Source: a virus. Taken from it: a stretch of DNA of 64,000 nucleotides. The stretch covers positions 11,155 to 75,154 of the IMG/VR virus record IMGVR_UViG_3300020158_000335; one strand, written 5' to 3'. The position numbers and the translations under genes were made by a program. Below, one piece after another: positions 1-14,292 of the stretch. The notes beneath the pieces were generated by a model. That model was given only the letters and a program-made list of their open reading frames with translations, searched no databases and had not been told where the DNA came from. Every line of letters starts with the position of its first letter. Positions within the stretch are counted from its first letter, which is position 1.

Positions 1-2972
1 TTATTAAATTCTTCTCTCGTCATGTCCCACGGCTGCTTATCTGCCACAGATGGTGCGCTTGTACCAGAGGCGTCCGGGGCTTGATCGTTGTTGGCCATTT
101 TATTGAATTCAGGATAGTCTTCCAAAACATGTTTTGCTACTGGAAGCCCTTTTGATATTGCGTCAAGAACTGCGTAGTAGTGTTGCGTATGTTCTGTCAT
201 GGGTGATTCTTTTACGATCATGCCATTATGCCCAGCATCTTCAAAAAAACGGAACATGTCCTCAGAAACAACATCGGGATCGCCACATCTATCAGTAAAC
301 GTTTTCCACTGTTTTGTTGTGACAAGACCTTCTCGGTATTTCTTCTCTGTATTTTGGGAGAGTAACCGCTTTAGTGCCGCCCATTGTTTTTCGCGTAAAG
401 TGTTTTTTGCGGTACGTTTTCGGGATATTGAGATATAGGTATCCCTGCTCATCTGCCACGGCTGCTTATTGGCCACGGATGGAGCCGATTCCATAACCAG
501 ATCATCGTCGTCATCCTCATCGTATTCACCTTCATCACCATCTTCAAAAATCCCTTTCTGCTTGTTCGCCGGATCAAGTTCAGCCGCCCGAGCAATAGCG
601 CCCTTTATGACTTCCGAAGCGGTCGGTGCTGGTTCTTTTCCAAACAGCCCGACTTGATTCTGATACTGCAGAAAGGTTAAAATGCGTTCGCCCGCCAGCT
701 TGAAAACCGTTCCAAGATGTTTTGACCGTCTGATGTTATCGTTTAAAATCCGGGTGATGTCCTTTGTTTCTTCTGGTATCTGTGAGAACAGCCCCATTTG
801 TGAAAGAATCATTTCAATTCCGTCCCCATCGTCTCGGGCCTGAACCATAAGGCGTGTGGCTTCAATGATATTGTCCACAAGATTGATACCGCCCATATCC
901 GGATAGCTGGCCCTGATTTTGGCGAACACGGGAGCTGCTGCGGTTAATGCAGTCAGGATGTTCTTGACGGCTGGATGCGTCTCTTCCGCCATCAAAGTTA
1001 AAAGCCTGTCATCAGCATAAGCTTTGCTGAAAATGGCGCACTGAATTCGATCTACAAGCGCTTTTGTTGGACGGCTGTCCGCCGTAAGCAGCCCAGCCGC
1101 CTCAGCTTTGCCCACTTTTTCAATAAACTTGGCGATAAATCCCGCATTACTGGCAGCCGCGATGTCCCCGTCTTTGGATGGTGTAAATCTTTCCATATCC
1201 GCAGCGGTTAGCCTGCTGTCATCAACCTTGGCCTGTTCCATCGGACTCATGGAGGCGATATCCGCCTCGTTTGCCCGCTCTGTAATTGATCTGCGATCTC
1301 CACCGGAAAGACGGATCCGGACAAGCACCGGCTGCTGGATTTCCGCCAGTTTTTCCGGATTAAACCCAAACTTACCGGCATTCTGAATAATCCATGCTTT
1401 GTATTCGGTCGCGCCGTCTTTGTTGTACCGTTGCCTGATAGCCATTGTCCGGCCGTTCCCGGATTCAACGGCTAAATCCCTGCCAACGATAGGCGATCCG
1501 ACAGATGCGTAAAGAGAATCGCCCAGGCGGTCTGGATTGAGAGTGTTTGAAATTGTTGGAATCTGCCCCTTCATGGTATCCCGTGTCCGGTCCCGTGGTT
1601 GAAGCTCGGCAGGGAATTCCGGGTTCGGCGTAAAATCAGCGTTATGGGAAGCGACAAGGTTTTTTGCTTCGACTACTGCATATTGCAGTACCAGCATATC
1701 ATTATCACTCAGGTAAGCGCGATCACGCTTGCCTGTGATTACTTTAGCGTTGACTTTTCCGCCGTTTCTGGTAATATTTTCAACATCAAAAGGAGGATTA
1801 CTTATGCTATCTCGTAATTTTGAATTTATGGAAAATGAGTTTGTTCCGTATGCCATCGAACGATCAGGCGGTAGGGTGTTCCGCATGTGTGGAAGGTCAA
1901 TGGCAAAATGGAAAGAGATTGAGGATTCCGACAAGGCTTTCAGGATTACCTCAAATGCCTTCTCTGTCTCAGAGTCATCTGCTATAGCACTGGCTGATGA
2001 GTTTGAAGAAGACATCCGTGAAGCCGCCGCCCGATAAACCTTGGTGCTGACCTTGTTTAGGCGAGAGATAAACCCGTCCGCCAGGATAGATACTTCTCCT
2101 AATTCTTCTTGGCTCGCAATCGGTTTTAATTGCCTGATTACGTTGTAAATTTCATGCCCAAGCCCGTTCTCTTTTGCATCAATAATTGGGGCGGTGTTCA
2201 TCTGCAATTCGCAGATGTGCCCGCCGATCATGACTTTCATTATGATACCGGGATAGCCTTCTTTAGTCGGATTTTCGAACCCATTCTTAATCCAGAATAC
2301 AGCAGGGTCTTTTGATATTAAACTGGAAGCCATAGCAACTTGCGATGTGGTGTCGAATACCAATGTCGCAGCTACGACGTCCAAAAGCTTTGACTCGTCT
2401 CCCTCGTAATCATTCTCGATTTTTTCAGCCGCACGTTCTTTCCCTTTTAACCCAGGTCGCAATATCACTTTGGCGCCTGTTTTCGCTCCGAAAGCCTCTA
2501 CCCATTCCTTAAATGCAGGAAGCGCAATCTCAGCCGCAGCGTACACGTCTTCAATGGTCTTAACGCCTTGCTGTTTCAGAGATTTTTTGATTTCAACCAC
2601 CACATCAGTTTCACCTAAATCCTTGAGCGCCTGAAGTGTGGTGTTCCCATCCAGCACCTTAAACTTCCCGTTGCCCATATCAATCACCCGAATAGGCGCA
2701 CGTTTCTCACCTGTTCCGGACTTGGCCGCCGCCATAGACTCATGAGCGCGTTTCACCCGTTCCGGGTCCGCCGCTTCACTGGGAACCAGTTGATCAATGG
2801 AAATGGTTACGCTGTTGAACGTGTCTTTGAAAAACGGAGAGTTACTCGGAGGCATCGTTTCAGAGAAAACATGACGAAAGACGTTTGAAATATCGTCAAT
2901 GTCCTGTGCGGCGGCAAGCTCAGCTCGCCAGTCGGGATTACCTGGAAGGGATTCAAAAAATGCTGATAGCAT
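1..2972 (-). CDS. Large DdrB-like polyvalent protein (partial, >990 aa): ParB-like domain, RelA/SpoT-like nucleotidyltransferase domain, DdrB-ParB domain
   Basis: ATG at 2972; frame stays open off the left edge, so it is absent from the ORF track. Manual translation gives APIRVIDMGNGKFKVLDGN, LKGKERAAEKIENDY..LLDVV..GY..CELQMNT..HEIYN and LQPRDRTR..GSPIVGRDLAVESGNGR. Confidence 0.85.
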   Translation of the reverse strand, partial: MLSAFFESLPGNPDWRAELAAAQDIDDISNVFRHVFSETMPPSNSPFFKDTFNSVTISIDQLVPSEAADPERVKRAHESMAAAKSGTGEKRAPIRVIDMGNGKFKVLDGNTTLQALKDLGETDVVVEIKKSLKQQGVKTIEDVYAAAEIALPAFKEWVEAFGAKTGAKVILRPGLKGKERAAEKIENDYEGDESKLLDVVAATLVFDTTSQVAMASSLISKDPAVFWIKNGFENPTKEGYPGIIMKVMIGGHICELQMNTAPIIDAKENGLGHEIYNVIRQLKPIASQEELGEVSILADGFISRLNKVSTKVYRAAASRMSSSNSSASAIADDSETEKAFEVILKALSESSISFHFAIDLPHMRNTLPPDRSMAYGTNSFSINSKLRDSISNPPFDVENITRNGGKVNAKVITGKRDRAYLSDNDMLVLQYAVVEAKNLVASHNADFTPNPEFPAELQPRDRTRDTMKGQIPTISNTLNPDRLGDSLYASVGSPIVGRDLAVESGNGRTMAIRQRYNKDGATEYKAWIIQNAGKFGFNPEKLAEIQQPVLVRIRLSGGDRRSITERANEADIASMSPMEQAKVDDSRLTAADMERFTPSKDGDIAAASNAGFIAKFIEKVGKAEAAGLLTADSRPTKALVDRIQCAIFSKAYADDRLLTLMAEETHPAVKNILTALTAAAPVFAKIRASYPDMGGINLVDNIIEATRLMVQARDDGDGIEMILSQMGLFSQIPEETKDITRILNDNIRRSKHLGTVFKLAGERILTFLQYQNQVGLFGKEPAPTASEVIKGAIARAAELDPANKQKGIFEDGDEGEYDEDDDDDLVMESAPSVANKQPWQMSRDTYISISRKRTAKNTLREKQWAALKRLLSQNTEKKYREGLVTTKQWKTFTDRCGDPDVVSEDMFRFFEDAGHNGMIVKESPMTEHTQHYYAVLDAISKGLPVAKHVLEDYPEFNKMANNDQAPDASGTSAPSVADKQPWDMTREEFN
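1750..1777 (+). promoter_or_regulatory. Antisense sigma70-type promoter nested in a coding linker
   Basis: TTGACT (1750-1755), 16 bp, TAATAT (1772-1777) with extended-10 TG; AGGAGG at 1791-1796. Confidence 0.7.
1804..2037 (+). CDS. Nested antisense 77-aa protein, candidate antitoxin of the RelA/SpoT-like domain
   Basis: Promoter, AAAGGAGG RBS 7 nt before ATG 1804; the overlapping sense frame is a Ser-rich unstructured-looking linker. Confidence 0.65.
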   Translation: MLSRNFEFMENEFVPYAIERSGGRVFRMCGRSMAKWKEIEDSDKAFRITSNAFSVSESSAIALADEFEEDIREAAAR

Positions 2973-3055
2973 GTTAATTAGCCTTTGGATTGTTGGTTTG
3001 AGATTATATCAAACAGGATTACATTCAAACGGCGGGGATGGCAAATAGGTGATGT

Positions 3056-3073
3056 GCAGATAGGGGTATATAG
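3056..3073 (-). promoter_or_regulatory. Candidate late-promoter motif copy 1
   Basis: gcagataggggtatatag; similar copies at 20943, 34536 and 44360, all upstream of minus-strand virion genes. Confidence 0.45.
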
Positions 3074-3137
3074 AGATTTTCTGGCGAAGGATACAAGGTT
3101 GACTGTTTTTCGGATTTCAAGTAAAGTCTTTTTTATA

Positions 3138-3725
3138 ATGATTGATAATTTCCAAAAACAAAGACTGCATGAAAAATTGTTTGAGTCGCAATGCTCTATC
3201 GTGACACATCAGGCGTATCTTGCCAGAATTGACAGTGTACTGAGAACCATAGAGATTCTTGCGATATGCGCTCCTATAGGATTCATGTCTGTCCAATTGT
3301 CTTTGATTAGCAATGTGGCAATCACAAAAATACTTTCGATTATAAACCCGATTCTATCAGCGGCATTACTTATACTCGCTGTTTTTTCCCTTACCCAAAG
3401 TTACAGACAACGGCTGCAAGATCATCAGAAGTTTCTCGTTGAAAACTTTCCGATAGCCGAACAACTCAGGGCTCTCCTTATCAAAACAGAAGCTGATGAC
3501 AGAGATGTTGAAAAAATCATGGATAAAATAACAGCTTTGGACAAGGAAGAGGCACGATTGATGGCGCACCAGAAAGCCGATGAAAAACAAACATTTTACA
3601 GGGAAGCGATGAAGCGCATGGGAGATATAGATGTGAAATGCCCGAAATGCGGGAAATCTCCGTGGGAGTATCAGAAATCGAAAAACAAGTGTCAGGTCTG
3701 CGGTAGTGAACTACCCCTACCCTAA
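3138..3725 (+). CDS. 2-TM protein with C-terminal CxxC..CxxC ribbon (mobilome CxxC-CxxC / SLATT-like)
   Basis: Two hydrophobic helices; CPKC-x13-CQVC; TTGACT-17-TAAAGT at 3099-3127 favours ATG 3138 over TTG 2985. Confidence 0.65.
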   Translation: MIDNFQKQRLHEKLFESQCSIVTHQAYLARIDSVLRTIEILAICAPIGFMSVQLSLISNVAITKILSIINPILSAALLILAVFSLTQSYRQRLQDHQKFLVENFPIAEQLRALLIKTEADDRDVEKIMDKITALDKEEARLMAHQKADEKQTFYREAMKRMGDIDVKCPKCGKSPWEYQKSKNKCQVCGSELPLP

Positions 3726-3740
3726 AGGGATAGGGGCTTT
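3706..3740. repeat. Hairpin resembling an IS200/IS605-family end, or a terminator
   Basis: gtgaactacccctaccctaaagggataggggcttt; no transposase or nuclease nearby. Confidence 0.35.
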
Positions 3741-4034
3741 ACGCCATTCTTATAAAGACCGGGCAAGTACGTTTATAATGGAAGGCTTACAATATGCCGC
3801 TCCCCCGGCAAGCAGATTCGATGCTCTGAGTCCGAAATGCCCAACATGCAGGAGACCATTATGAACGACAGAAGCATATTGAAAGTCATAGCCATTGCGA
3901 TTAGCCTGATCGGATATTACAGCGTAGGCGGATTCGGTTGGTTTTTACTCATCGGGGCTAACGTCCTTCTGCTGTATCAGGATTACAAATTTTCCAGCAG
4001 GAATAATTGATAAAAATATCAAAACAGCAATAGA

Positions 4035-4066
4035 GATTAAGGGTACCCTGTAGAGTACCCTTAATC
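4035..4066. terminator. 12-bp inverted repeat between convergent genes
   Basis: gattaagggtac ... gtacccttaatc. Confidence 0.45.
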
Positions 4067-4263
4067 CACATTTCTTGAGTGGTTATCCTGTTGCAAGGGC
4101 CGCATCACTGAATCGGAAGTTTATTGCCAAAATCCTGTTCTATGGCGAGTTGCTTGATTTTCTTCAGGAGGCTGATTTGGATCATCACCTGAAGACTGAC
4201 TTCATCAACCCAATGCCATGCGTCATTTATGTCCAGTTATCCCCACGCTGTTATCCAAAATTA

Positions 4264-5298
4264 TTATATCCCATTACCACTGTCACTTTCTAAATCAAAA
4301 GGCAATTGCATCGTTTCATTGAATGCAGGATGAACTATGTCAAGATTGTTTTTGAAGTCTCCCCAACGCTTACTAAGTTTCATTATTGTAGTAACCGATA
4401 CAATGAGTTCTTTAAGTTTTGGATGTCCTGTTTCAATTGTAAGTTTTCTATGTAAATGATGTTTTAAGCGCCCCCTTTCATTTTTTTCTGCTTGAGCTTT
4501 CAACTCCTTCCACACCCCAGGGGCAAGCCGACGATAAACAATATCATTGGTTAAATGTCCGAAATACAAAGGCCGTTTTACGCCATTGCTTGGGAATGGC
4601 AAACTACGCAACCGAAACATTTGTTCATAAAAATCAGAAGGGAACGTTTTAACCCAAGGCTGAAGCTCTTTGGCGACGAAAGACTCAAGTATTCTTGCCA
4701 ATTCATCACGGGCTCTATCTTTTTGATAACCTGTAGCCTCATCTACCAGTGCAACAATGCCGACGCGCATAAAACCACGCATTAAAATTTCACACTGTTT
4801 TGCAATTATCAAACGTCGAGGAGTAGTCAATAGGCCATTATCTCTGGCTTCAAGCATGGCTTCACAAATATCTGCAAGTATTTCTGCACGGTACCCGCTA
4901 ATATATCTCCCCTCAAAAACGCACTTGATAGGTAAAAAATGGTCCGGCCTCTTATCTTTATAAATCAACTGGTTAGCCCATTTTGCTGACAGAAAACGGT
5001 CCACCCTGGAGCCAGGTTTTGTCCCGCTTGCTGGAGCTTCTTCGTCGACCAATCTGAGTGTTTCTTGCAACCCACGGCCTGACAATAACCGCTCTCCGGT
5101 ATTGGTCACATAACAAGACAGGCTGAATCCACAAAGGTCAATTAAACCTGTATGCGTTATTCGAACCATTGACGCCTTTTCTTTTTTTGCTTTAACCATT
5201 TTTAATGATTGGTCCTTGCGCTGTGCAGGTGTCATCATAGCGTTTTTTACTTTTCCACCTTTTGATCTACCAGTTACATCACAGATTGAATTTGGCAT
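4264..5298 (-). CDS. P63C-domain phage protein
   Basis: ALVDEATGYQKDR..LQPWVKTFPSDFYEQMFRL motif. Confidence 0.85.
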   Translation of the reverse strand: MPNSICDVTGRSKGGKVKNAMMTPAQRKDQSLKMVKAKKEKASMVRITHTGLIDLCGFSLSCYVTNTGERLLSGRGLQETLRLVDEEAPASGTKPGSRVDRFLSAKWANQLIYKDKRPDHFLPIKCVFEGRYISGYRAEILADICEAMLEARDNGLLTTPRRLIIAKQCEILMRGFMRVGIVALVDEATGYQKDRARDELARILESFVAKELQPWVKTFPSDFYEQMFRLRSLPFPSNGVKRPLYFGHLTNDIVYRRLAPGVWKELKAQAEKNERGRLKHHLHRKLTIETGHPKLKELIVSVTTIMKLSKRWGDFKNNLDIVHPAFNETMQLPFDLESDSGNGI

Positions 5299-5457
5299 AT
5301 TGCATTCCTTTTTTATATGTTCAGCATGTTATTACATGCAAAATATAAAAAAGCAAATAAAAAGTTATGCAATTAAGAAAATTGCATAAATCCCCTTGAC
5401 ACCCCAGCAACTCATAGCAAACAGTTGAAAGCTACATAACCTTATCTGCGGAGAAAC

Positions 5458-5494
5458 AAAAAAAAAGCCCCTGTGAACTGAATCACAGGGGCTT
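5458..5494 (-). terminator. Rho-independent terminator of the darA operon
   Basis: aaagcccctgtga-actgaa-tcacaggggcttt stem with an A-run on + (U-run on -). Confidence 0.8.
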
Positions 5495-5522
5495 TCGTAT
5501 GCGGGTATGGGTGTGTTATTGG

Positions 5523-5891
5523 TTAATCGTCTTGATCATCCATCAGGCCAGCGTTTTCTTCAATAAATTGCATCCATGCCTTATCAGGAACAAACCCAAT
5601 AAGTAATTTCACTTCCTGAATCAAGTCAGTCCGGTGGTGCATTGTCTCATTCATTAGCAATATGTGATAAACATCTTGAGGGATCATAAACGGATCATCA
5701 ATGTCAATTGCATGGCCATACATTCCCTGCCCGTGGGTCAAAAAGTACTGCCGGAGAAGATAATATCCGCTGACATAATCAAGAGCAACCTTTCCAGCAG
5801 TATCCCACTGGGTAGGTGCAATGACAAGTTCCACGGTGCCGCCTGGAGTGATAATCTGCCAGTGATAAAATGATTCTGGGTATCGTTTCAA
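5523..5891 (-). CDS. Hypothetical protein abutting the 1458-aa gene
   Basis: 122-aa ORF with TTG start directly after the upstream stop; followed by a terminator. Confidence 0.6.
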   Translation of the reverse strand: MKRYPESFYHWQIITPGGTVELVIAPTQWDTAGKVALDYVSGYYLLRQYFLTHGQGMYGHAIDIDDPFMIPQDVYHILLMNETMHHRTDLIQEVKLLIGFVPDKAWMQFIEENAGLMDDQDD

Positions 5892-8800
5892 TTATGCCGC
5901 CTTTATGTCTGGAAGCCCGTCTGTGACCCAAGACGGGACGTTGGCTATAGCAGCAGGGATACTGTCTTTGTTAATGACGTTGAATTGGCCCCAATCTTTG
6001 AAATCTCTGGTTGCGCCATCCCCCAGTGTTGACTGCTCTAATGCCAGATACAGATATGCAATTTGTAGAACGATCTGCTTCGATTTAGCAGAAAATTGGA
6101 AGAGGTAATGTCCGTATGAATCCCATTCTTTTGAAATAATATAGTAACCATCGGAGTTACTTGTTTTCTTATGTCCGCTCACAGATTGAAAAGTAGCAAA
6201 CGGTTCATAAAAAAGAGGGTTCTTCTTGATCTTCTTATCGAGCATTTTATAAAATGCGTCAATAGGCTTTGAAGCATCGGTAATTGCTTTGGCCAGTTCC
6301 AAATCACCAATGAATTTTTCTTTTTCAGAACCAGACGGAGGGGTAGCCAGTATGCCCAAAATCATTTTAAACATTTCAGGGTCATTTACCACTAATTCGT
6401 GCATTAATTCAGGGGACGAAAACTGCTGGATGCCCATTGAAAAGACTTCTGTTGAGTTATCTGCCCCATAATACTTCCCGACATAAGCGTTGAACAGGTG
6501 GTCTGTGTATGCCACTTCATCATCTTTGTAGTTTTCATTCCCGGTCAGAACAGATAATTTTATCAACCCCTTTGTTTTATCAACTCTACCGTCGAGAAAC
6601 GTATTGGAAACTGATACATACTTTGCGTCATCTTCAACTAAATGCCCCATTTCATGCCATAACGTACTCTTGGTAAACTCAGCCCCGACATGGATAATCT
6701 TTCGACCGACTTCAGCGCAAGCTCTTGGTTGGCCTTTAAACCTTTCCTGGATGTGACATTTACCGAACCGCCCCCCGCTTAACCGGTATAATTCCGCCAT
6801 GTCTTTTCTGATATTGGCCTCGCCATACCCGGCTTTTGTTGTTGTTCCCGATTTGCCTGTTACCGATATTTCAACTGCCAAGTAGTTTATCGCGGATTTG
6901 TCTATCACCTGGTCGCTGACCCATTGGTTGGCCTGCTTTTCGGTAATGGGTGATGATTCAAGCATTTTTTGAATCAATGGGTTATAAGTTTTGGCGAGTG
7001 CATCTGATAGTTCTGTGTTTAGCTGCTGCTTCTTATCGGAAAAAGACTTTTCTTTTGTTTTGTACTCAGATTTAAGATTTTGATATTCATCAGAAGCGAG
7101 AAATTCATCCAGAGCTTCTTGAATAATTTTTAGGTTTTTAGCGTATCTCTCTTGTGTTTCAGCAGCCATTAGAGAGTATGCTTCATGCAGTTTGATCCAT
7201 TCGTCAGTTTTTGCCCGTGTGCCTGATATCCTATTTGCGATGGCGTCCAAATAAGAACCCGCAACTGCCGTCTCTCTTTCTACATCCCCCAGCTTTTTGG
7301 TATATCCTAATCGGTCTTCAAGTGTTGATTTATCTGCTCTATATTTAAGCTCTGCCGCAGACCGTTCTTGTTCAAGGGATAAAAGGTCATTTCGTGCAGC
7401 AGAAACCTTCAGCGCAACCGGTCTAAAGCCAGGGGCCGTTGACCATGCATCTACAATCTCTTCCCCTTTGGCTTTTGCAGCATCAAAGATTTCCTTCCCG
7501 GCTTCCTTCGATAGTTCTGACATCGGCTTAACGTTTTCATATCCTGACACCATCCGAGCCAATGTGCCAGGGGCGATTGTGATGAGCCTGTCTTCTGACA
7601 TCGACTTACGCATTAATTCTGAGATTTCATATCTTTGGATAGCGGTTACTGCCACGTTGTAATCAGAGACCAATAATTCAAGTCGATCTATATGGTCGAA
7701 CACGGTTATAGCGTCTTGTGGCTTGTTTGGCATATCTTCTGACATAATTCCTGACGCCTTGAACGCAAGATAAATATCATCAAATGTGGTTGCAGCCCGG
7801 AGCATATCTTTCCAGTCGCCGCCATCTTCAAGGATTGCGGTCTCCATAACCGGATCATCATCCAGCATATCCTTTGCCATTGCAGGAGCAGGCGCAGCGC
7901 TTTCCAAAATACCGCCCCAGTCCTCCCGCCATGCCGCCAGGTACCAAGTCTTCCTGTCCGGGTCCCATGACACCGTTGCAATCTCACCCTGCCACGATAA
8001 ATCGACTTTCGGTCTGCTGGATGGCCCGTATTTTCGCTTGATATGTCCACGGGTCAACATATCCACAAGCCTCATGCAGAGTTCACGGCCTGACTGTTCG
8101 CTGGGCAGGTTTTTTTTTTCAAAATCCTGCTTGGCGATGATTCGGGCAATGCCGTCACCATCAGCAAAAAGCGGGGCAGTCCCAGTATTCCCCCAAAGGA
8201 GGGCAATCCAGCCGATATCCGGACGGCTGGCACCCTGTATGGTGTTCTTTTGGGTATCCAGCGTGTTTTTCATGGCCCGCTTGGATTGATCCTGGGCGAT
8301 GGTGGGCTTTTGGTTCGGCTGGACGGTGGATTCAAGAATCATGGCTTTGCCTATTGTTATTTCCTGCAAGCCGAGTGTAAAAGTCGCCTTGATTTTTTTG
8401 GGGTACACTGCTGCCATGCCCAGAACAAGTTTCTCGTTGACATCAAGTTCTGCATAAATTCCATATTTAGGCCCAATCATACTTCTGAGTGAAGGTGCGC
8501 CTTTGCCTTCTATTGATAGAGTATATACTCCAGGGGGTAACTTCAGGATTGCTGCTTCAAGTAAAGCCCGTCTGCCATCACCGTACACTGAAAGGTAAAG
8601 TTTGTTTTTCGTATTTAAAATGCTACTCCTGGCAATACGAGACAGAAGTTTACGTACGGTTGTTTCTCCTTCATCTGTCTCGATCTTTTGATCCAGATGG
8701 GCGGAGGATTCAAGAATTGATCCGATTGAAGGATCGAATGTGCCCTGATTCTCTACCGCTTTGATTTGGTTCGGATTAAAAGCTATCCAGACAAGGTGTT

Positions 8801-10268
8801 CTTTACCACCGCCCATTATATTGCCGCCGATGTGAGTAATGCCGTCATAACCAACATTTTGCAATACCTGATTTGCGACGGCCTTGCTATCTGCTTGTTG
8901 TTCAAGCAATGAGTAATTATAACCTCCTGGCGTGGTACGTTTTATTTCTTTTGATATAAAATCATCAATTTCTGTATCTGAAAATTTTACAAGAGCAGGA
9001 AACAACAGCATCCATTCGTTACGGGACAACAACTGCATATCAAGAGTATCTTTGTCCGCGTCAAACGGGTTCCGAATGTTCAGGAAGCATGAATAAACGG
9101 CGCGGTTGGCTTCTGTTTTTCCTGCCACTAACGGCATTGCGATTTTTATTCTTTCGCTGTTAAGGAAACCCCTGGCATCCCGTACCAGATGTTCTACAGC
9201 ACCGTCAGATAAAAATAATTGTTGGTTATCATCTGACGATAATGCACCAGCCCCAATGTCCATTACATCCATGTTAAATACCTTCAAAAAGGTATCACGG
9301 AACTCTTCCTTGATCGTTGCCCATTCCACGACTTCCTTACCCATATATTCCCGAGCCACATCTTTGTTTTCAGTAAAATAAAACCCTGGCCCATATAACG
9401 CTGTTTTATCCTGCTTTGAAATGTCGAATTCCTTAAACCCGGCTTTGGCTGTGCCGTGATATACCGGAACTGGAGTTTGAATTTTGTGGGTTTCCTGGGG
9501 AGAGCCGTCTGGGTTTACGACTTTGGATGTTATTTTTCCATTGACAATATCAATAAGATGTGCGATCTTCTCCCCATAGCCTGCGGGCGGTGCTGCTACT
9601 GGCGAGGACATTTCTTGTGTCGAGGTCAGCCCTTCACCACATGACGCAGGCTTTCCTATTTCTACCGCTTGCACAAGATACAGACGAGTTCCACGTTCCT
9701 TCCTGGTATATTCCTTTGCCATGATTTTTACACACAAGACTTCACCGTCGAATTTCATCGGGACATCAAAATGGTGTATTTCTTTGATGTTTTCGTTTCC
9801 CTTGCGGTCATCACGAGACATCCTAAAAGCTGAAGCCTGAAACAGCCTGTCAAGATTTGCAATAGCCTGCATGTGGGCTTGAACTGAGACTGATCGTTCA
9901 TACGCACTTTTGCTCAACATCTTCAGCAGCGATTCACCTGAAACGGTTGCTGTGAATCCGGTGTCGATATTAACCAGGGGCACCCCGATAAACTCTTTCG
10001 CTGCTGCCTTTGCCTGGTCTGATCCCCGCGCATATCGCATATTCCCCAGAAGCGCAGCCTTTTCCCAATCCCCAAACCATTCCTTAAACTTCTTGGCCTT
10101 CACGCCGTTTTCTGAGTAATCATACTTGGCATAATCAGCCGGGAATTCCGCTTCAAACACCGCCGCAATATCCCCGAATGTTTGAGCATTCCGGATTGCA
10201 TCACGCCAGTCCTTCGCTGCGGGTTCGGGGGTGCCGCCATCCGCTGGGGTTCCGGATTCAAGAATCAT
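5892..10268 (-). CDS. Large polyvalent protein: LPD3-like domain inserted in an ART-PolyVal-like ADP-ribosyltransferase, degenerate PBECR-like domain, coiled coil, zincin metallopeptidase
   Basis: FKEWFGDW..SKVVNPDG..VYHGT..GFYFT..GYDGI..AFNPNQIK; LVNIDTG..HMQAIANLDRLF..VKIMAKE; LWHEMGH..TEVFSMG. Confidence 0.8.
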   Translation of the reverse strand: MILESGTPADGGTPEPAAKDWRDAIRNAQTFGDIAAVFEAEFPADYAKYDYSENGVKAKKFKEWFGDWEKAALLGNMRYARGSDQAKAAAKEFIGVPLVNIDTGFTATVSGESLLKMLSKSAYERSVSVQAHMQAIANLDRLFQASAFRMSRDDRKGNENIKEIHHFDVPMKFDGEVLCVKIMAKEYTRKERGTRLYLVQAVEIGKPASCGEGLTSTQEMSSPVAAPPAGYGEKIAHLIDIVNGKITSKVVNPDGSPQETHKIQTPVPVYHGTAKAGFKEFDISKQDKTALYGPGFYFTENKDVAREYMGKEVVEWATIKEEFRDTFLKVFNMDVMDIGAGALSSDDNQQLFLSDGAVEHLVRDARGFLNSERIKIAMPLVAGKTEANRAVYSCFLNIRNPFDADKDTLDMQLLSRNEWMLLFPALVKFSDTEIDDFISKEIKRTTPGGYNYSLLEQQADSKAVANQVLQNVGYDGITHIGGNIMGGGKEHLVWIAFNPNQIKAVENQGTFDPSIGSILESSAHLDQKIETDEGETTVRKLLSRIARSSILNTKNKLYLSVYGDGRRALLEAAILKLPPGVYTLSIEGKGAPSLRSMIGPKYGIYAELDVNEKLVLGMAAVYPKKIKATFTLGLQEITIGKAMILESTVQPNQKPTIAQDQSKRAMKNTLDTQKNTIQGASRPDIGWIALLWGNTGTAPLFADGDGIARIIAKQDFEKKNLPSEQSGRELCMRLVDMLTRGHIKRKYGPSSRPKVDLSWQGEIATVSWDPDRKTWYLAAWREDWGGILESAAPAPAMAKDMLDDDPVMETAILEDGGDWKDMLRAATTFDDIYLAFKASGIMSEDMPNKPQDAITVFDHIDRLELLVSDYNVAVTAIQRYEISELMRKSMSEDRLITIAPGTLARMVSGYENVKPMSELSKEAGKEIFDAAKAKGEEIVDAWSTAPGFRPVALKVSAARNDLLSLEQERSAAELKYRADKSTLEDRLGYTKKLGDVERETAVAGSYLDAIANRISGTRAKTDEWIKLHEAYSLMAAETQERYAKNLKIIQEALDEFLASDEYQNLKSEYKTKEKSFSDKKQQLNTELSDALAKTYNPLIQKMLESSPITEKQANQWVSDQVIDKSAINYLAVEISVTGKSGTTTKAGYGEANIRKDMAELYRLSGGRFGKCHIQERFKGQPRACAEVGRKIIHVGAEFTKSTLWHEMGHLVEDDAKYVSVSNTFLDGRVDKTKGLIKLSVLTGNENYKDDEVAYTDHLFNAYVGKYYGADNSTEVFSMGIQQFSSPELMHELVVNDPEMFKMILGILATPPSGSEKEKFIGDLELAKAITDASKPIDAFYKMLDKKIKKNPLFYEPFATFQSVSGHKKTSNSDGYYIISKEWDSYGHYLFQFSAKSKQIVLQIAYLYLALEQSTLGDGATRDFKDWGQFNVINKDSIPAAIANVPSWVTDGLPDIKAA
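9541..9569 (+). promoter_or_regulatory. Antisense promoter nested after the LPD3-like domain
   Basis: TTGACA (9541-9546), 17 bp, GATCTT with extended-10 TG; the -10 is weak. Confidence 0.55.
9576..9660 (+). ncRNA. Candidate structured antisense sRNA (~80 nt)
   Basis: Terminal stem agcctgcg (9578-9585)/cgcaggct (9645-9652) at the predicted +1; nested helices ggtg/cacc, ctggc/gtcag, gaca/tgtc; pyrimidine tail. Confidence 0.5.
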
Positions 10269-10606
10269 GGCTGTACCGTTTTCTTGATTTCAATATATTT
10301 TTCAGTCGGTTGAATCACCGGTGAAACAGCCTGAATTTCATCCGTGATTGCCTTTATGATTTTGATAAACCGCTCCGGCTCTTCACCGTTGAATTTTCCG
10401 GCGATAAGGTCAGCAAGCTTCTGGTTCTGCTGAGCGGCTTCTGGTTGAAGGTCAATTTGTTCGTTCAGTTTGGCGAGGGCCGACTTAAACTCCTTTTGAG
10501 CTTCACGCTTTGCTGAAAAACTAAGCCCGCTGGATGCAAGCTCAGTTCGTTTTTGCGCCACTATCGCCTGCAATGTCCGTTTTTCTTTAAATCCAAGTGC
10601 CATCAC
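10265..10606 (-). CDS. DdrA-like small protein
   Basis: Position directly after darA as in P1; duplicated LxFxxKR motif. Confidence 0.5.
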   Translation of the reverse strand: MMALGFKEKRTLQAIVAQKRTELASSGLSFSAKREAQKEFKSALAKLNEQIDLQPEAAQQNQKLADLIAGKFNGEEPERFIKIIKAITDEIQAVSPVIQPTEKYIEIKKTVQP

Positions 10607-13092
10607 ATCACCTTTTTAGCTTCCTCGTTTAACAAACCGGTTAAATAATCAGCGACGGTATTCAGAAGCCCATCGTATTTCTCCATCAAGCCTGCGGTTT
10701 CCAGTGTTGCGGCTGCCTCATCCAGTATCCTGCCATATCCATCAGTATCCGAATCGTGAGCGCCGGACATCAGGTCATTCAGGGTGGCGATTGCGCTCTT
10801 GACATCCGCATCTTCTGGGGGTATATTATCCCCAAGGTTGCTCTCATTCGAGCGTCTGCTGTCTTCGGGCTGGCCGGGTTCTTCCACGGGGGCAGGAAAC
10901 GAAGGTGATTGGTCAGGATCATCAGCGTGCGCGACACGCAGGAGCAACTTTCTTCCACCTCTCTGCTCATAAGGTGTTTTGCTTTTTGGTTTGGCATCTT
11001 CAAGAAACCATGTTGTAACGCCGTAATATCCTCCGTTATTTTGCAACTCAACTGCTGCGAATTTACCACGTCCATTTCGTTTTACAAGCAACAGCCTCCC
11101 GTTAGGTTGTTCGTAAATTTCAGTGTAATGGCGGGTGATGTCCGAAAGTGCATCTATTTCGTCATTATATCCGTATGCCTTGAATTCCTTGATTCTGTCT
11201 TCTGCAATATGTGACTTACCATAAGCGCCGCCTTCCTCAAGTCGGATAGGTGCGGATGGGAATCTTCCCTCGCTGGCCGTTTCTATATCGGGGCCGATAC
11301 TCCCAAAATCAGAAGTTCCATCAGGCGCGGGAATGAATAGACTTCCAGGGGTTTCGACTTTATCCACTTCCGGCGCAATCTGTTCCGGAGATAAAGATGA
11401 TTGAGCGAGTTCGGGATATTCTGCGATAACCATTGTATCTACAGGTTCCCCTGCGGTTACGGCCCGTTTGACACTCCTGGCATGATTTCCTTCACTGATT
11501 GATATTATTTGAGTCCTGGCCTCAAGTTCCTTCGCTATTGCTTGTGGTATAGCTGCATCGGCGCGAAGCCCCGCGAGTGATTCGCCAGCACGAAGCCCTG
11601 TAATCGCTTGGTTAATAAGGTCGAGCGCTCTTTCCGCTGCTCCGTCTTCTTTCAGCCTGCGTTTGGGGCTTGTCCATAAGCCATAATTAGAAGGTCGGTT
11701 CCTATATTTTCCGTCAGGATATTCGGCTATTATACTCTTTGCGCTTTTAGCTTCCTGTTCAAGCATATAAATCAGATAATATTTTTTCGTCATTTCCCAG
11801 GGTTCCGGTACGTCCGGTTCCGGCATCACAAATTCCGGGACAACCGGCGTGACTTCCGGCGTGACGACTTCCGGGGCAACAGGCGTGACTTCCGGCCTTG
11901 GCGCTTTCCCACTGGTGTACAAATCTTCAACGTATTTATCCCATTGCGCCTGCGTGGCTTCACCTTTTTGAAGTAATTCCCACATTTGACCAGTCCACTC
12001 CTGATCTTGAGACCGAACCCCTGGCACCGCCATTTCCCCTACTTCTCTCAATCTGACAAACTCAAGTCGCTTGACTTCCCTCTCATTGGGGATTTTATCT
12101 TCCTTGATTTTAGCCATTATCCCCTTCAAGTCGTTTATAAACCCGTCCTGTTTCATCATGTCAAATGCTTGCTTATCTATCCCCAGGGAAAGAGCTTCAT
12201 CTTTAAGCGCCTCAAATTCCGAATCCATCGCCGCCTGCTTCGCCGCCGTTTCCGCCGCCATCGCCCGCGCCGCTTCATCCGCCTTGGCCTTCACCTGCAA
12301 TGCCGCAAGCTGGTTTTCCAAATCAGCATTTATACCCTGCTGTTTTTCAATCAAGCCTTGCGTCATGGTAATCTTTGTTTGGGTGATTTCCGCAGCAGAC
12401 TGTTGATCCCTAAGCCCGTTCATCAGAGCGACATTTTCAGTGGACAATTTATCAGCATCCGACTTCAAGGTCACAAGCTGTTCATTTTGAGCCTTCACGT
12501 CTTTTTGTGTCGTCTGAAACCTTGCAGAGTTCTTCACCACAAGCTGAGCTATACGTTTGCCCACCTCTTCCAGCGAAATCTCACCCTCGCCCTCTGGTGA
12601 CACCACAAGCGTAATATCCCGTTTATTCAGCAGCCAGCGGTAAGCAATAATCTCATCATCAGGGCCGATCTTCTTGGCGTCCCCGCTCGGGGAATGAAAC
12701 ACAATCGTAATGGCCTGCCCATCGGAAAACGGAATCTGAGCGGTAACATTTGCAAACAATCCGGTTTTCCGTGGTTTTCCGATAATTGCCTCAGCCGGTG
12801 CGATCCCTTCAGGCAGATGTTTTGCAAACACCCGGGCAAGCGCTCTCATCCTGCTGTCTGTCTGTGAGAATCTCTTGACTGTAACCGCCTCGTAAATCCC
12901 TTCTTCCAGAAACTCGCCGTCATTGTACTCATCGTCCATTTCTGCAAGAGTCGCACATTCCAGAATCAGCCTGTCTGTCTCATGGGTATTGGTCAACGCC
13001 ATATAAGCTCGAACCAACCTGTCGGGACCGAACCCTTTAACGAACAAATCAAGCCCGATTTTGTGCAATTTGCCTTCTGAGTATGGGTTCAT
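10603..13092 (-). CDS. darA: DarA-like virion antirestriction protein with an added C-terminal PBECR-like RNase domain
   Basis: FSDGQAITIVFHSP..RWLLNKRDIT..VVKNSARF N-domain and coiled coil; PIRLEEGGAYGKSHI..YYGVTTWF domain. Confidence 0.8.
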   Translation of the reverse strand: MNPYSEGKLHKIGLDLFVKGFGPDRLVRAYMALTNTHETDRLILECATLAEMDDEYNDGEFLEEGIYEAVTVKRFSQTDSRMRALARVFAKHLPEGIAPAEAIIGKPRKTGLFANVTAQIPFSDGQAITIVFHSPSGDAKKIGPDDEIIAYRWLLNKRDITLVVSPEGEGEISLEEVGKRIAQLVVKNSARFQTTQKDVKAQNEQLVTLKSDADKLSTENVALMNGLRDQQSAAEITQTKITMTQGLIEKQQGINADLENQLAALQVKAKADEAARAMAAETAAKQAAMDSEFEALKDEALSLGIDKQAFDMMKQDGFINDLKGIMAKIKEDKIPNEREVKRLEFVRLREVGEMAVPGVRSQDQEWTGQMWELLQKGEATQAQWDKYVEDLYTSGKAPRPEVTPVAPEVVTPEVTPVVPEFVMPEPDVPEPWEMTKKYYLIYMLEQEAKSAKSIIAEYPDGKYRNRPSNYGLWTSPKRRLKEDGAAERALDLINQAITGLRAGESLAGLRADAAIPQAIAKELEARTQIISISEGNHARSVKRAVTAGEPVDTMVIAEYPELAQSSLSPEQIAPEVDKVETPGSLFIPAPDGTSDFGSIGPDIETASEGRFPSAPIRLEEGGAYGKSHIAEDRIKEFKAYGYNDEIDALSDITRHYTEIYEQPNGRLLLVKRNGRGKFAAVELQNNGGYYGVTTWFLEDAKPKSKTPYEQRGGRKLLLRVAHADDPDQSPSFPAPVEEPGQPEDSRRSNESNLGDNIPPEDADVKSAIATLNDLMSGAHDSDTDGYGRILDEAAATLETAGLMEKYDGLLNTVADYLTGLLNEEAKKVM
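10799..10827 (+). promoter_or_regulatory. Antisense promoter nested after the PBECR-like domain
   Basis: TTGACA (10799-10804), 17 bp, TATATT (10822-10827). Confidence 0.75.
10834..10956 (+). ncRNA. Candidate structured antisense sRNA (~120 nt)
   Basis: Terminal stem aggttgctc (10835-10843)/gagcaactt (10942-10950) at the predicted +1; cUUCGg loop 10863-10868; ctggcc/ggtcag; gcgtg-cgcga-cacgc hairpin; U-rich tail. Confidence 0.55.
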
Positions 13093-13688
13093 TATGCGCC
13101 CTCCTGAGCGTTCTGAATCATGTCAATATCAAGATTCAGCTTAACGGTTTTGGCCTGCTCGTTTTTAAGCTGTGTTTCAAGCCCTGCAAGTTGATATTGA
13201 AGAGTTGTAACCTGGCCAGCCTGGGCGGTGGTCTCCGCCATGATGTTTTCGTTCGTGCCTTTAAGCTGTGCGACGGTTGCCGTAACTGTGTCAACCTGCG
13301 CTGATATGCTGGTATTGACCGCCTTTATCTTTGGGATTTTAACAATCCCGGCGTTTTTCTCTTTGGCTTTTGTGAATGCCGGTTCATTTGCCTTGACGTA
13401 GGTTATCACCTCATCAACAGCCTTGGCGATATCATCAACAGACTTGATCGGAATGACCTTTGCGTTAAGTTTGACCTGAAAAACGCCGCCGCCAGCCTTG
13501 ATTTTTACAGTTATTTTCTGGCCGGACGCAAAAACCAACGTGGCGGTTTTCATCAAAAACCCGGATTCGCGTTTGGCCTTGTTCGTGGCTTCAACATCTT
13601 CTACCGGGATGCCTGCCGTTTCAAATTTTTTAAGCACCGGCTTTAACCCGGCCTTGTCGAATTTCTCAAAATCTATGGTTAAAGCCAT
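13092..13688 (-). CDS. hdf: Hdf-like protein (DarA N-domain homologue)
   Basis: KRESG..LVFASGQKITVKIK..VFQVKLN plus coiled coil; directly upstream of darA. Confidence 0.75.
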   Translation of the reverse strand: MALTIDFEKFDKAGLKPVLKKFETAGIPVEDVEATNKAKRESGFLMKTATLVFASGQKITVKIKAGGGVFQVKLNAKVIPIKSVDDIAKAVDEVITYVKANEPAFTKAKEKNAGIVKIPKIKAVNTSISAQVDTVTATVAQLKGTNENIMAETTAQAGQVTTLQYQLAGLETQLKNEQAKTVKLNLDIDMIQNAQEGA

Positions 13689-13776
13689 ACGATCTCCCCC
13701 TCTTATATGTTATTCATTGATAAACGGACTATCCTTAAATCACAAATGGCTTGCGTGTTTTTGAACTCTGCTTTTT

Positions 13777-14292
13777 TTACCATGATACAGCCATCACATC
13801 GTTGATGCTATGACAGGATTTAATGGCAGAGTATAATTGATTTTTCTTGTACAAAACTGCCTGGAAATGGGCTCCAACTTGCACCCCGACAGATATCATT
13901 TCCGCCAAAGATAAAACATGAGATTGGTTGTCATAATCAATAAATGCTATCTCGGGCACCTCGGCAAGCTGCATCATCGTCACAGCAGCGACCATATTTG
14001 CGCGGTCTTTGTCCTCGCAATCGTACCGAATACCAGATGGTTGCACTACACATCCCAGCGAAAGCTCTGATATTGAGCAGCCCTTGATAATCTCTTTCTG
14101 GATTCCCATAGCAAAATCAAGGTCGATAAGCTGCCCATCATCAGGGATGCGATTGACATCGTAGCTGTACCCTGCTTCTGTTTGATCTTCAGGCGACATC
14201 TGCGTAAGTTCTTCCAGCCTGATATTGTATGGATACAGGATCGAACTCTGCAACCGCTGGATAACAGGGATATTCTTCGCATATACTCTCAT
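13777..14292 (-). CDS. DUF4376-like tail fibre-associated protein
   Basis: YDCEDKDRANM..DYDNQSHVLSLAEM..VMAVSW pattern; position after the fibre genes. Confidence 0.65.
   Translation of the reverse strand: MRVYAKNIPVIQRLQSSILYPYNIRLEELTQMSPEDQTEAGYSYDVNRIPDDGQLIDLDFAMGIQKEIIKGCSISELSLGCVVQPSGIRYDCEDKDRANMVAAVTMMQLAEVPEIAFIDYDNQSHVLSLAEMISVGVQVGAHFQAVLYKKNQLYSAIKSCHSINDVMAVSW

Follow-up and report, generated by a model that had tools for sequence, protein, structure and literature searches.

The window analysed here is a 64,000-nt stretch corresponding to bases 11155–75154 of a 75-kb IMG/VR provirus record (IMGVR_UViG_3300020158_000335). Its DNA is present in freshwater and lake metagenomes from eleven studies, and no close relative of the window was retrieved from phage and plasmid collections by megablast, or from IMG/VR, GTDB genomes and JGI metagenomes. 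On the minus strand, positions 1–13100 carry a gene cluster resembling the Dar genes of phage P1. Inside three long genes of this cluster, which we call A, B and C, lie three small elements on the plus strand, each behind its own promoter motif of the sigma-70 type (sites 1, 2 and 3). These nested elements exist, are transcribed and are conserved. We favour, with moderate confidence, the reading that they are antisense small genes within Dar-like effector genes, one encoding a probable immunity protein and two encoding RNAs that silence in cis. The genes and elements are as follows.

3–2972, minus strand: gene A, a polyvalent protein of 1548 amino acids in full, running past the window start; ParB-like, RelA/SpoT-homologue (RSH)-like and DdrB-ParB domains
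1750–1777, plus strand: site 1 promoter, TTGACT-16-TAATAT, 9/12 matches, TGn before the -10 box; antisense inside gene A
1790–1796, plus strand: Shine-Dalgarno (SD) sequence AAGGAGG, 7 nt before the ATG at 1804
1804–2037, plus strand: nested antisense gene P0004, 77 amino acids; Tis1-like, probable immunity protein
2037–2585, minus strand: RSH domain (Tas1-like alarmone synthetase), gene A residues 130–312
5892–10268, minus strand: gene B, a polyvalent protein of 1458 amino acids; LPD3, ART-PolyVal and a C-terminal part matching a phage metallopeptidase
9541–9569, plus strand: site 2 promoter, TTGACA-17-(TGc)GATCTT, -10 box only 3/6; antisense at the LPD3/ART junction of gene B
9576–9660, plus strand: site 2 RNA, about 80 nt; 8-bp closing stem (9578–9585 with 9645–9652), then a U-rich tail
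10265–10606, minus strand: DdrA-like gene
10603–13092, minus strand: gene C, a DarA_N protein of 829 amino acids; PBECR3-like domain at about residues 600–730
10799–10827, plus strand: site 3 promoter, TTGACA-17-TATATT, 11/12 matches; antisense to gene C, within the variable linker that follows the PBECR3-like domain
10834–10956, plus strand: site 3 RNA, about 120 nt; four helices (a closing stem and three inner ones), then a U-rich tail

Each of the long genes joins several unrelated effector-type domains in one polypeptide (DdrB-ParB, RSH-like and ParB-like in A; LPD3 and ART-PolyVal in B; DarA_N and PBECR3-like in C), as in polyvalent proteins of the phage type. An earlier reading of this DNA, made without database searches (the sequence-only reading), had named three of these domains RelA/SpoT-like, LPD3-like and PBECR-like. 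The LPD3 match in gene B, which is followed by ART-PolyVal, was strong (E = 2.7 × 10^-16), and the RelA/SpoT label was borne out by fold, as described below; by sequence, the RelA/SpoT match of gene A (Pfam RelA_SpoT, E = 0.049, 14.3 bits against a curated cut-off of 27) and the PBECR3 match of gene C (E = 0.006) were weak. PF04607 is recorded for the gene A homologues P0006 and P0008, and PBECR3 for the homologues P0044 and P0049. LPD3 had also been taken for a toxic domain. We found no evidence of its toxicity and rejected it as the toxic partner; the effector to watch at this junction is the ART domain.

All three promoter motifs were found where the sequence-only reading had placed them, at 1750, 9541 and 10799. 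As a class, such motifs are not enriched: 32 occurred in 16 kb, against 26.8 ± 5.3 in shuffled sequence, and antisense sites with at least 9/12 matches numbered 61 record-wide, against 56.3 ± 6.1 after synonymous-codon shuffling of all 85 open reading frames (ORFs). Enrichment was confined to the strongest antisense class, with three sites of at least 11/12 matches, the one at 10799 among them, where 0.4 were expected. The -10 box of site 2 was too poor for the promoter scan to list it. What distinguishes the three sites is what lies behind them. Among 15 plus-strand promoter-like sites in the window, an organised product, either an ORF led by an SD sequence or a stem-closed RNA with a U-rich tail, followed these three only, in agreement with the one ORF and two RNAs described by the sequence-only reading. 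The three sites thus stand apart from the other promoter-like sites of the window by virtue of products that are organised, transcribed and kept.

The peptides NITRNGGKVN, KIAHLIDIVN and NIPPEDADVK, noted earlier as a shared I-x6-V(N/K) pattern, were found in the three minus-strand proteins. We rejected the idea that this pattern is a motif of the proteins. It arises from translation of the promoter boxes in the protein frame, where the isoleucine comes from the -10 box (..ATA..) and Val-Asn or Val-Lys from the -35 box (GTC AA.).

Transcription was assessed from contigs assembled from four metatranscriptome runs of two studies over positions 1–14000. Such contigs give no level and mostly no strand; their cover was sparse (depth 2–5), and stretches devoid of contigs are not evidence of silence. 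Apart from an element at 3706–3756 described at the end, the deepest contigs of these 14 kb lay directly downstream of the three sites. At site 1, contigs covered 1801–2130 (depth 24.5) and 1797–2191 (depth 15.6) in runs X16 and X18, with uncovered flanks. Both were fused at their low end (1797 and 1801) to Illumina read-1 read-through adapter. In most stranded libraries the first mate reads the strand opposite to the RNA. The presence of a single adapter type indicates a stranded library, and hence a plus-strand RNA at site 1 with its 5' end 20–24 nt after the -10 box; a start near 1784 would fit if a few nucleotides were lost in second-strand synthesis. Variant letters in these contigs did not discriminate between the frames, being silent in both at 1860 and 1869 and changing both at 1865. 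At site 2, contigs covered 9578–9634, one reaching 9654, at a depth of 23 in run X20 against 2–3 nearby; in X19 the depth was about 190, as estimated from a bin mean of 32.5. They span the predicted stem-closed RNA nearly end to end, which points to a discrete RNA of about 77 nt. Contigs at site 3 covered 10863–11013 (depth 9.5) and 10877–10972 (depths 17.8 and 27).

The contigs of X19 and X20 derive from a related phage in the second study. Their similarity to the window ends sharply before 1805, after 9654 and after 10972, as expected if the nested elements lie at mosaic junctions or are better conserved than their flanks.

The product of site 1 belongs to a protein family. A search of 1.84 billion representative sequences with P0004 yielded 24 matches at E ≤ 10^-3, mostly proteins of 70–109 amino acids that aligned end to end, and contigs of 11 to 918 kb carry distant homologues among their called genes. 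Pfam, PHROGs, the ESM Atlas and tblastn searches of phages and plasmids gave nothing for P0004. An AlphaFold2 model built from 16 sequences had a predicted local distance difference test (pLDDT) score of 93.2 and a predicted template modelling (pTM) score of 0.80. Foldseek returned no significant match for this model; its first row was chain 6ox6_B, the immunity protein Tis1 (E = 0.67). Exhaustive alignment to 48,161 representative chains again ranked Tis1 first, with a Z-score of 5.3 and the next chain at 4.0; 6ox6_B was the only chain with Z of at least 5, and it superposed on P0004 with a root-mean-square deviation of 3.3 Å over 62 of 76 residues.

The domain next to P0004 on the other strand was assigned by its fold. 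Foldseek gave 33 matches at E ≤ 0.001 for the RSH-like domain of gene A, whose model has a core pLDDT of 75–88; the matches listed were all enzymes of the RelA/SpoT family, which identifies a synthetase fold. The top matches were 8vx3_B, 6ewz_A and 6ox6_A, each with a probability of 1.00. The third of these is Tas1 (E = 2.1 × 10^-5), whose identity of 22% was the highest among the matches. The Tas1 match of the domain and the Tis1 match of P0004 therefore come from one entry of the Protein Data Bank (PDB), 6OX6. Residues R172, K176, K184, D198, E255 and Q257 of the domain are conserved in an alignment of five homologues. We also predicted the complex between the RSH-like domain and P0004. The interface score (ipSAE) was 0.45, with 0.00 for the best control, and was rated as weak support; partner pLDDT was at least 84 and contact agreement at least 91% in these runs. 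Of 80 solved complexes 58 reached the mark used, but only 7 of the 80 reached it with a score of 0.60 or lower; among 110 mismatched pairs, 2 reached it.

Selection on the nested frame can be judged from the sense protein. Third codon positions of P0004 oppose third positions of gene A, so that each sense residue fixes an antisense residue. In comparison with the homologues P0006–P0009 (53–60% identical to gene A), residues 315–390 show 58% identity and are as conserved as the catalytic domain, with some ten invariant serines; much of this stretch is predicted to be disordered, and residues 363–400 have a pLDDT below 50. Substitutions within residues 315–390 have a mean BLOSUM62 score of -0.79 in the sense frame, where they are radical, and of -0.13 in the implied antisense frame, where they are milder. 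The reverse holds in all other regions of gene A, and a sliding window peaks at residues 310–320, where the ORF lies.

The site 1 promoter does not sit in a free linker. It falls inside a peptide kept by the nearer homologues, about 125 residues past the Pfam RelA_SpoT match, and NPPFD.ENITRNG.KVN is conserved there as protein. At site 1 this corrects the earlier description of promoters in linkers right after the domains. That the promoters point back into the toxic domain is likewise true only in part, the site 1 ORF and the site 2 RNA covering linkers and not catalytic domains. P1-like DdrB proteins do not contain the ENITRNGGKVN peptide and hence provide no test of the site 1 promoter. These proteins begin only at about residue 390 of gene A, near site 1, and the module of ParB-like segment, RSH-like domain and nested gene therefore looks as if it had been added to the N-terminus of a DdrB-like body. 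The ParB-like segment of this module is a second, N-terminal one, located ahead of the RSH-like domain at residues 55–130 of gene A (about 2583–2810, minus strand; PHROG ParB-like partition protein, E = 0.008).

Two divergent loci link a small antisense gene to the same side of an RSH-like domain. A 3161-residue ORF in a Spirochaetaceae genome bin (L039) contains an RSH-like domain 33% identical to that of gene A; directly behind it, antisense, are TTGCCA-17-TATACT, GGAGGG-5-ATG and a 74-amino-acid homologue of P0004. This ORF was the sole non-self match among 16,424 six-frame ORFs (hidden Markov model E = 3.4 × 10^-4; hhalign 79%). In a 2868-residue ORF of an IMG/VR contig (L003), TTGACA-17-GATACT, GGAGGA-7-ATG and a 97-amino-acid ORF lie antisense behind the RSH-like domain, and the likeness of this ORF to the P0004 family is weak (hhalign 32%). 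The order is RSH-[ORF]-LPD3-[RNA]-ART in L039 and LPD3-ART-RSH-[ORF] in L003. In the window, L039 and L003 the small gene thus keeps to one side of the RSH-like domain despite differing domain order. The central idea of the earlier proposal, namely that effector domains are accompanied by an opposite-strand product with a promoter of its own, is upheld. A search for short stand-alone RSH-like relatives returned contig-end fragments only. Judging from the modelled fold, the linkage and the weak complex score, we think that P0004 probably serves as the immunity protein of the RSH-like domain, with a chance somewhat above even.

At site 2 the comparison rests on 39 distinct LPD3-ART loci, which share 23–37% protein identity and form 32 clusters at 70% nucleotide identity. 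Antisense sigma-70-like matches cluster at the homologous spot, 17 of about 51 falling into one of 18 bins. A motif was present there in 16 of 39 loci (15 of 32 clusters), whereas ORF-wide shuffles that keep protein and codon usage gave 2.65 ± 1.41 and local codon shuffles 4.48 ± 1.65. This was the positional check across homologues that the sequence-only reading had called for, run for the LPD3/ART junction, and the proposal passed it. The sense strand at the same place gave one locus and 40 composition-matched decoy motifs an average of 2.8. Under the -10 box the rare isoleucine codon ATA occupies 7 of 9 isoleucine positions, against 36% ORF-wide.

Structure downstream of this spot is conserved as well. 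The RNA of the window has a minimum free energy of -31.8 kcal/mol (z = -2.27). Across loci the first 90 nt downstream, which were not selected for folding, gave a mean z of -2.93, typically with a GC-rich closing stem followed by U5–7. In a separate scan 24 of 39 loci had a stem followed by a U-run, and ten of these 24 lack a sigma-70-like match; the sense strand gave 1 of 39, and the remainder of these ORFs led one to expect about 5. Folding on the antisense strand is favoured by 4.6 kcal/mol over the reverse complement, and the closing stems contain 27 G-U pairs. Among these RNAs the architecture is kept and the sequence is not. Rfam had no match at gathering scores in the whole window and none at E ≤ 1 in 9500–11100.

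The site 3 RNA has a minimum free energy of -45.8 kcal/mol, and the fold alone is not significant (z = -1.5). Its promoter lies in a variable linker, while the PBECR3-like domain before it is strongly conserved. The one relative for which DNA is at hand (L114; 60% protein and about 72% nucleotide identity) has TTGACA-17-TAGAGT at the same spot despite a 10-residue insertion just beyond. Between the two RNAs none of 42 predicted pairs is broken; five show compensatory changes and ten compatible one-sided changes. In slid controls 44–56% of cells paired and no double change occurred. The linkers of P0041, P0042 and P0044 retain [IL]-x6-V-[NK] amid otherwise dissimilar sequence. Three distant Bacteroidota PBECR loci (L080, L102 and L045) showed no antisense unit behind the domain, which is uninformative in view of their different promoter type. 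A semi-conserved peptide, FP.P..G(Q)..DSRRS, follows the PBECR3-like domain at residues 728–750 of gene C and recurs in proteins of differing architecture; it shares DNA with the 5' portion of the site 3 RNA and may be an imprint of that RNA or a protein processing site.

How might these products act? The site 1 protein would most probably bind and block the adjacent Tas1-like RelA/SpoT domain, as immunity proteins do. The RNAs of sites 2 and 3, being perfectly complementary to the polyvalent mRNA, could act in cis as fail-safe silencers through duplex formation followed by cleavage or a block of translation. Conservation of RNA architecture but not sequence favours such action in cis on the polyvalent mRNA. 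We regard silencing by the two RNAs as a possibility somewhat short of even. The promoters, of the host sigma-70 type, would be independent of phage late transcription, so that the lysogen would make the products at a time when the effector genes are silent. The host would thereby be protected from leaky effector expression and, at site 1, perhaps also from effector injected by related phages, and the DNA common to product and domain linker would keep the product attached during domain shuffling. The antidote role proposed by the sequence-only reading thus gains from the Tis1-like fold beside a Tas1-like domain and the weak complex pass at site 1; for the RNAs both silencing and neutralisation are conjecture. 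The broader idea that effector domains are two-strand cassettes, in which the linker DNA encodes on its other strand each domain's own neutraliser (a protein in the case of the alarmone synthetase, RNAs in that of the ART and RNase-type domains) expressed from a host promoter whose boxes surface as the linker pattern I-x6-V(N/K), is rather doubtful on present evidence. If true, toxic modules could be shuffled between phages and never be parted from their antidotes, and lysogens would be immune to the same effectors injected by related phages.

The closest known counterpart of site 1 is the Pseudomonas aeruginosa type VI (p)ppApp-synthetase effector Tas1 with its immunity protein Tis1 (6OX6). 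Both systems combine a toxin-type domain of RelA/SpoT fold with a protein of about 76 amino acids, and Tis1 is the best structural match of P0004 over its full length. P0004 and Tis1 share no detectable sequence similarity. Whereas Tas1 is a type VI effector, the domain here forms one module of a 1548-residue virion protein of a phage; and the gene for the immunity-like protein is nested antisense, behind its own promoter, in the gene that carries the toxin-type domain, whereas tis1 stands beside the toxin in an operon. Tis1-like domains neutralise toxic alarmone synthetases that make (pp)pApp by occluding the acceptor site, and they occur as antitoxin domains of toxSAS modules (PMC11782079). 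Prophage MuF toxins with a C-terminal Apk2 (p)ppApp synthetase likewise possess immunity genes (iapK, aph1; PMC5576092, PMC12226406). They resemble site 1 in having a virion-associated prophage toxin domain of RelA/SpoT type and a protein-type immunity factor, which blocks the active site in MuF-Apk2 and would do so here. In MuF-Apk2 the immunity genes lie downstream of the toxin gene and share its strand, whereas P0004 is overprinted on the opposite strand of a linker, and we saw no second immunity gene of the hydrolase type.

For the RNAs, phage precedents exist for antisense action in cis: OOP RNA of phage lambda acts against cII. Sites 2 and 3 also share with type I toxin–antitoxin pairs such as RalR/RalA (PMC4041452) a short structured RNA, probably made constitutively, that has its own promoter and intrinsic terminator and is complementary to the mRNA of a harmful or tightly controlled protein. 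The toxins of type I pairs are small enzymes or small peptides of the membrane, and their mRNA is as a rule covered at the ribosome site or the 3' end; at sites 2 and 3 the RNA is placed in a linker between domains, within a gene of 830–1460 codons. Site 3 recalls the type III system ToxI/ToxN (PMC3401426) in that a structured RNA adjoins an RNase-type toxin domain (PBECR3-like), but this RNA has no tandem repeats and is embedded antisense, not upstream on the same strand. The host genes themselves follow the known pattern of polyvalent proteins (Iyer et al. 2017, PMC5512222) and of P1 DarA, DdrA and DdrB, with DarA_N, DdrB-ParB, LPD3, ART-PolyVal, PBECR and RelA/SpoT domains and with a darA-like gene, a ddrA-like gene and then polyvalent genes in the P1 order. 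Iyer et al. describe no opposite-strand elements, and the word 'antisense' is absent from their paper. None of the published analogues (Tas1-Tis1, MuF-Apk2, type I pairs) has its antidote nested antisense in the toxin-bearing gene, and we found no published description of such an arrangement.

Four other explanations have to be weighed against nested immunity and silencer genes. Pervasive or spurious antisense transcription from chance promoters in moderately AT-rich genes, with accidental ORF and stems, would account for a motif density at chance level, for the site 2 -10 box with only three of six matches and for the site 3 fold that is not significant by itself; antisense ORFs of 100–200 codons are, moreover, frequent in the window. 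Conservation largely refutes it. Promoter position is kept far above synonymous shuffles, the stem plus U-run is strand-specific in 24 of 39 loci, and site 3 has compensatory changes with no broken pair. The site 1 ORF belongs to a protein family, is modelled at a pLDDT of 93 and bears an antisense-frame substitution signature, and only these 3 of 15 promoter-like sites have an organised product. We therefore regard chance as very improbable. Equally little credence is due to the view that the motifs merely reflect an amphipathic peptide under conservation, (K/R/T)-I-x2-L-x3-V-(N/K), and the use of rare, AT-rich codons to slow translation at domain borders for folding. The peptide pattern does recur, the site 1 peptide is kept as protein, and local GC content is 0.426 against an ORF mean of 0.480. 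But with the peptide and the local codon pool preserved, shuffles gave 4.5 ± 1.7 loci, not the 16 observed, the same AT-rich stretch yielded one locus on the sense strand and decoy motifs averaged 2.8; downstream terminators, RNA contigs and a nested protein are not predicted by it. A sense-strand signal at the LPD3/ART junction, that is, a programmed -1 frameshift or slippage yielding a truncated LPD3 protein with incidental promoter likeness, was rejected and is barely credible. Read in the sense direction, the terminator becomes a run of A with a strong stem directly behind it, and runs resembling A AAA AAG occur in some loci. An in-frame slippery heptamer was found in only 1 of 24 loci and not in the window, there is almost no spacer between run and stem, and the 27 G-U pairs become A-C mismatches on the sense strand, where the fold is also the less stable by the 4.6 kcal/mol given above; the promoter enrichment and the discrete RNA of about 77 nt would remain unexplained.

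The most serious competitor holds that the elements are real genes but not antidotes: lysogeny cargo placed in tolerant linkers, comprising a protein of another role and trans-acting or protein-binding RNAs directed against host or rival phages, so that adjacency to effector domains would only reflect the linkers. The overlap of the site 1 ORF and the site 2 RNA with linkers agrees with this, neutralisation has been inferred only, and trans-acting small RNAs of prophages are well known. Distant P0004 relatives, called on long contigs, may stand apart from any RSH-like gene. On the other side are the Tis1-like fold beside a Tas1-like domain, recurring in three divergent proteins on a constant side under varying domain order, and a complex prediction that passed weakly where the controls scored zero; RNAs that keep architecture and not sequence suit antisense action in cis better than a trans target or a protein partner. 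We consider the cargo explanation unlikely, though far less so than the other three.

Several observations weigh against immunity and silencing by nested genes. All RNA evidence comes from contigs of environmental samples, and two of the four runs hold a relative and not this phage. The RNA end at 1797–1801 falls after the SD sequence, which would be transcribed only if 10–15 nt were lost in library preparation. Strand was deduced, from the adapter, at site 1 alone, the contigs of sites 2 and 3 being strandless; those of site 3 begin 29–43 nt after the predicted +1 and extend 16–57 nt beyond the predicted end. The match to Tis1 is modest (Z = 5.3, 11% identity), with a Z-score under the level that alone proves a shared fold, and a profile of the P0004 family found no match at E ≤ 10 among PDB sequences. 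An ipSAE of 0.45 lies in a band where, without a good prior, wrong predictions outnumber right ones. Site 3 has one comparator, and its structure was predicted from those same two sequences. Some of the positive site 2 loci are from Bacteroidota, whose promoters are unlike the sigma-70 consensus. Finally, virion effectors are made late in a cell about to lyse, so that it is not obvious why an antidote should be required.

Examples from bacteria and phages of functional antisense genes lying wholly within a long protein gene are few and contested; the present cluster has three, each backed by transcripts and by comparison with relatives. Such genes are invisible to gene callers and normal annotation. 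Should the site 1 product be an immunity protein, virion-delivered phage toxins would carry immunity inside the toxin gene, with a bearing on the safe carriage of self-harmful effectors by temperate phages and on superinfection exclusion. The LPD3/ART junction RNA recurs in Verrucomicrobia, Spirochaetes, Bacteroidota and others and would constitute a widespread RNA class outside Rfam. A caution for domain annotation also follows, as some conserved linker motifs of polyvalent proteins are promoter imprint.

The remaining observations concern other parts of the record. Four further plus-strand sites have 11/12 matches: 13810 and 36328 inside minus-strand genes, 19599 at the 3' edge of a gene and 44428 in an intergenic region. 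None showed an obvious stem plus U-run or an SD-led ORF, the one exception being a weak stem of 7 bp behind 36328. Motifs with at least 10/12 matches in the coding regions of the 85 ORFs numbered 0 on the sense strand, against 9.2 ± 3.0 in synonymous shuffles, and 12 on the antisense strand, against 7.8 ± 2.6. The lack of strong sense-strand motifs may reflect selection against internal sense promoters. A tRNA search of the window found none.

Between genes A and B, a plus-strand ORF (2985–3725, 246 amino acids) has a weak match to SLATT_4 (E = 2.2 × 10^-5, under the Pfam cut-off). SLATT_4 is a two-transmembrane effector domain of defence systems. RNA contigs cover this ORF, which may be a defence cargo gene expressed in lysogeny. 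At its stop codon lies the hairpin element of about 50 nt mentioned above (3706–3756), seen in all four runs at contig depths of 200–6800 and with many different flanks, which indicates that it is common to abundant transcripts of other organisms. Rfam gave only weak hints to its nature, namely the 5' part of HEARO, an IscB-associated RNA (E = 0.046), and CRISPR-DR35 (E = 0.035).

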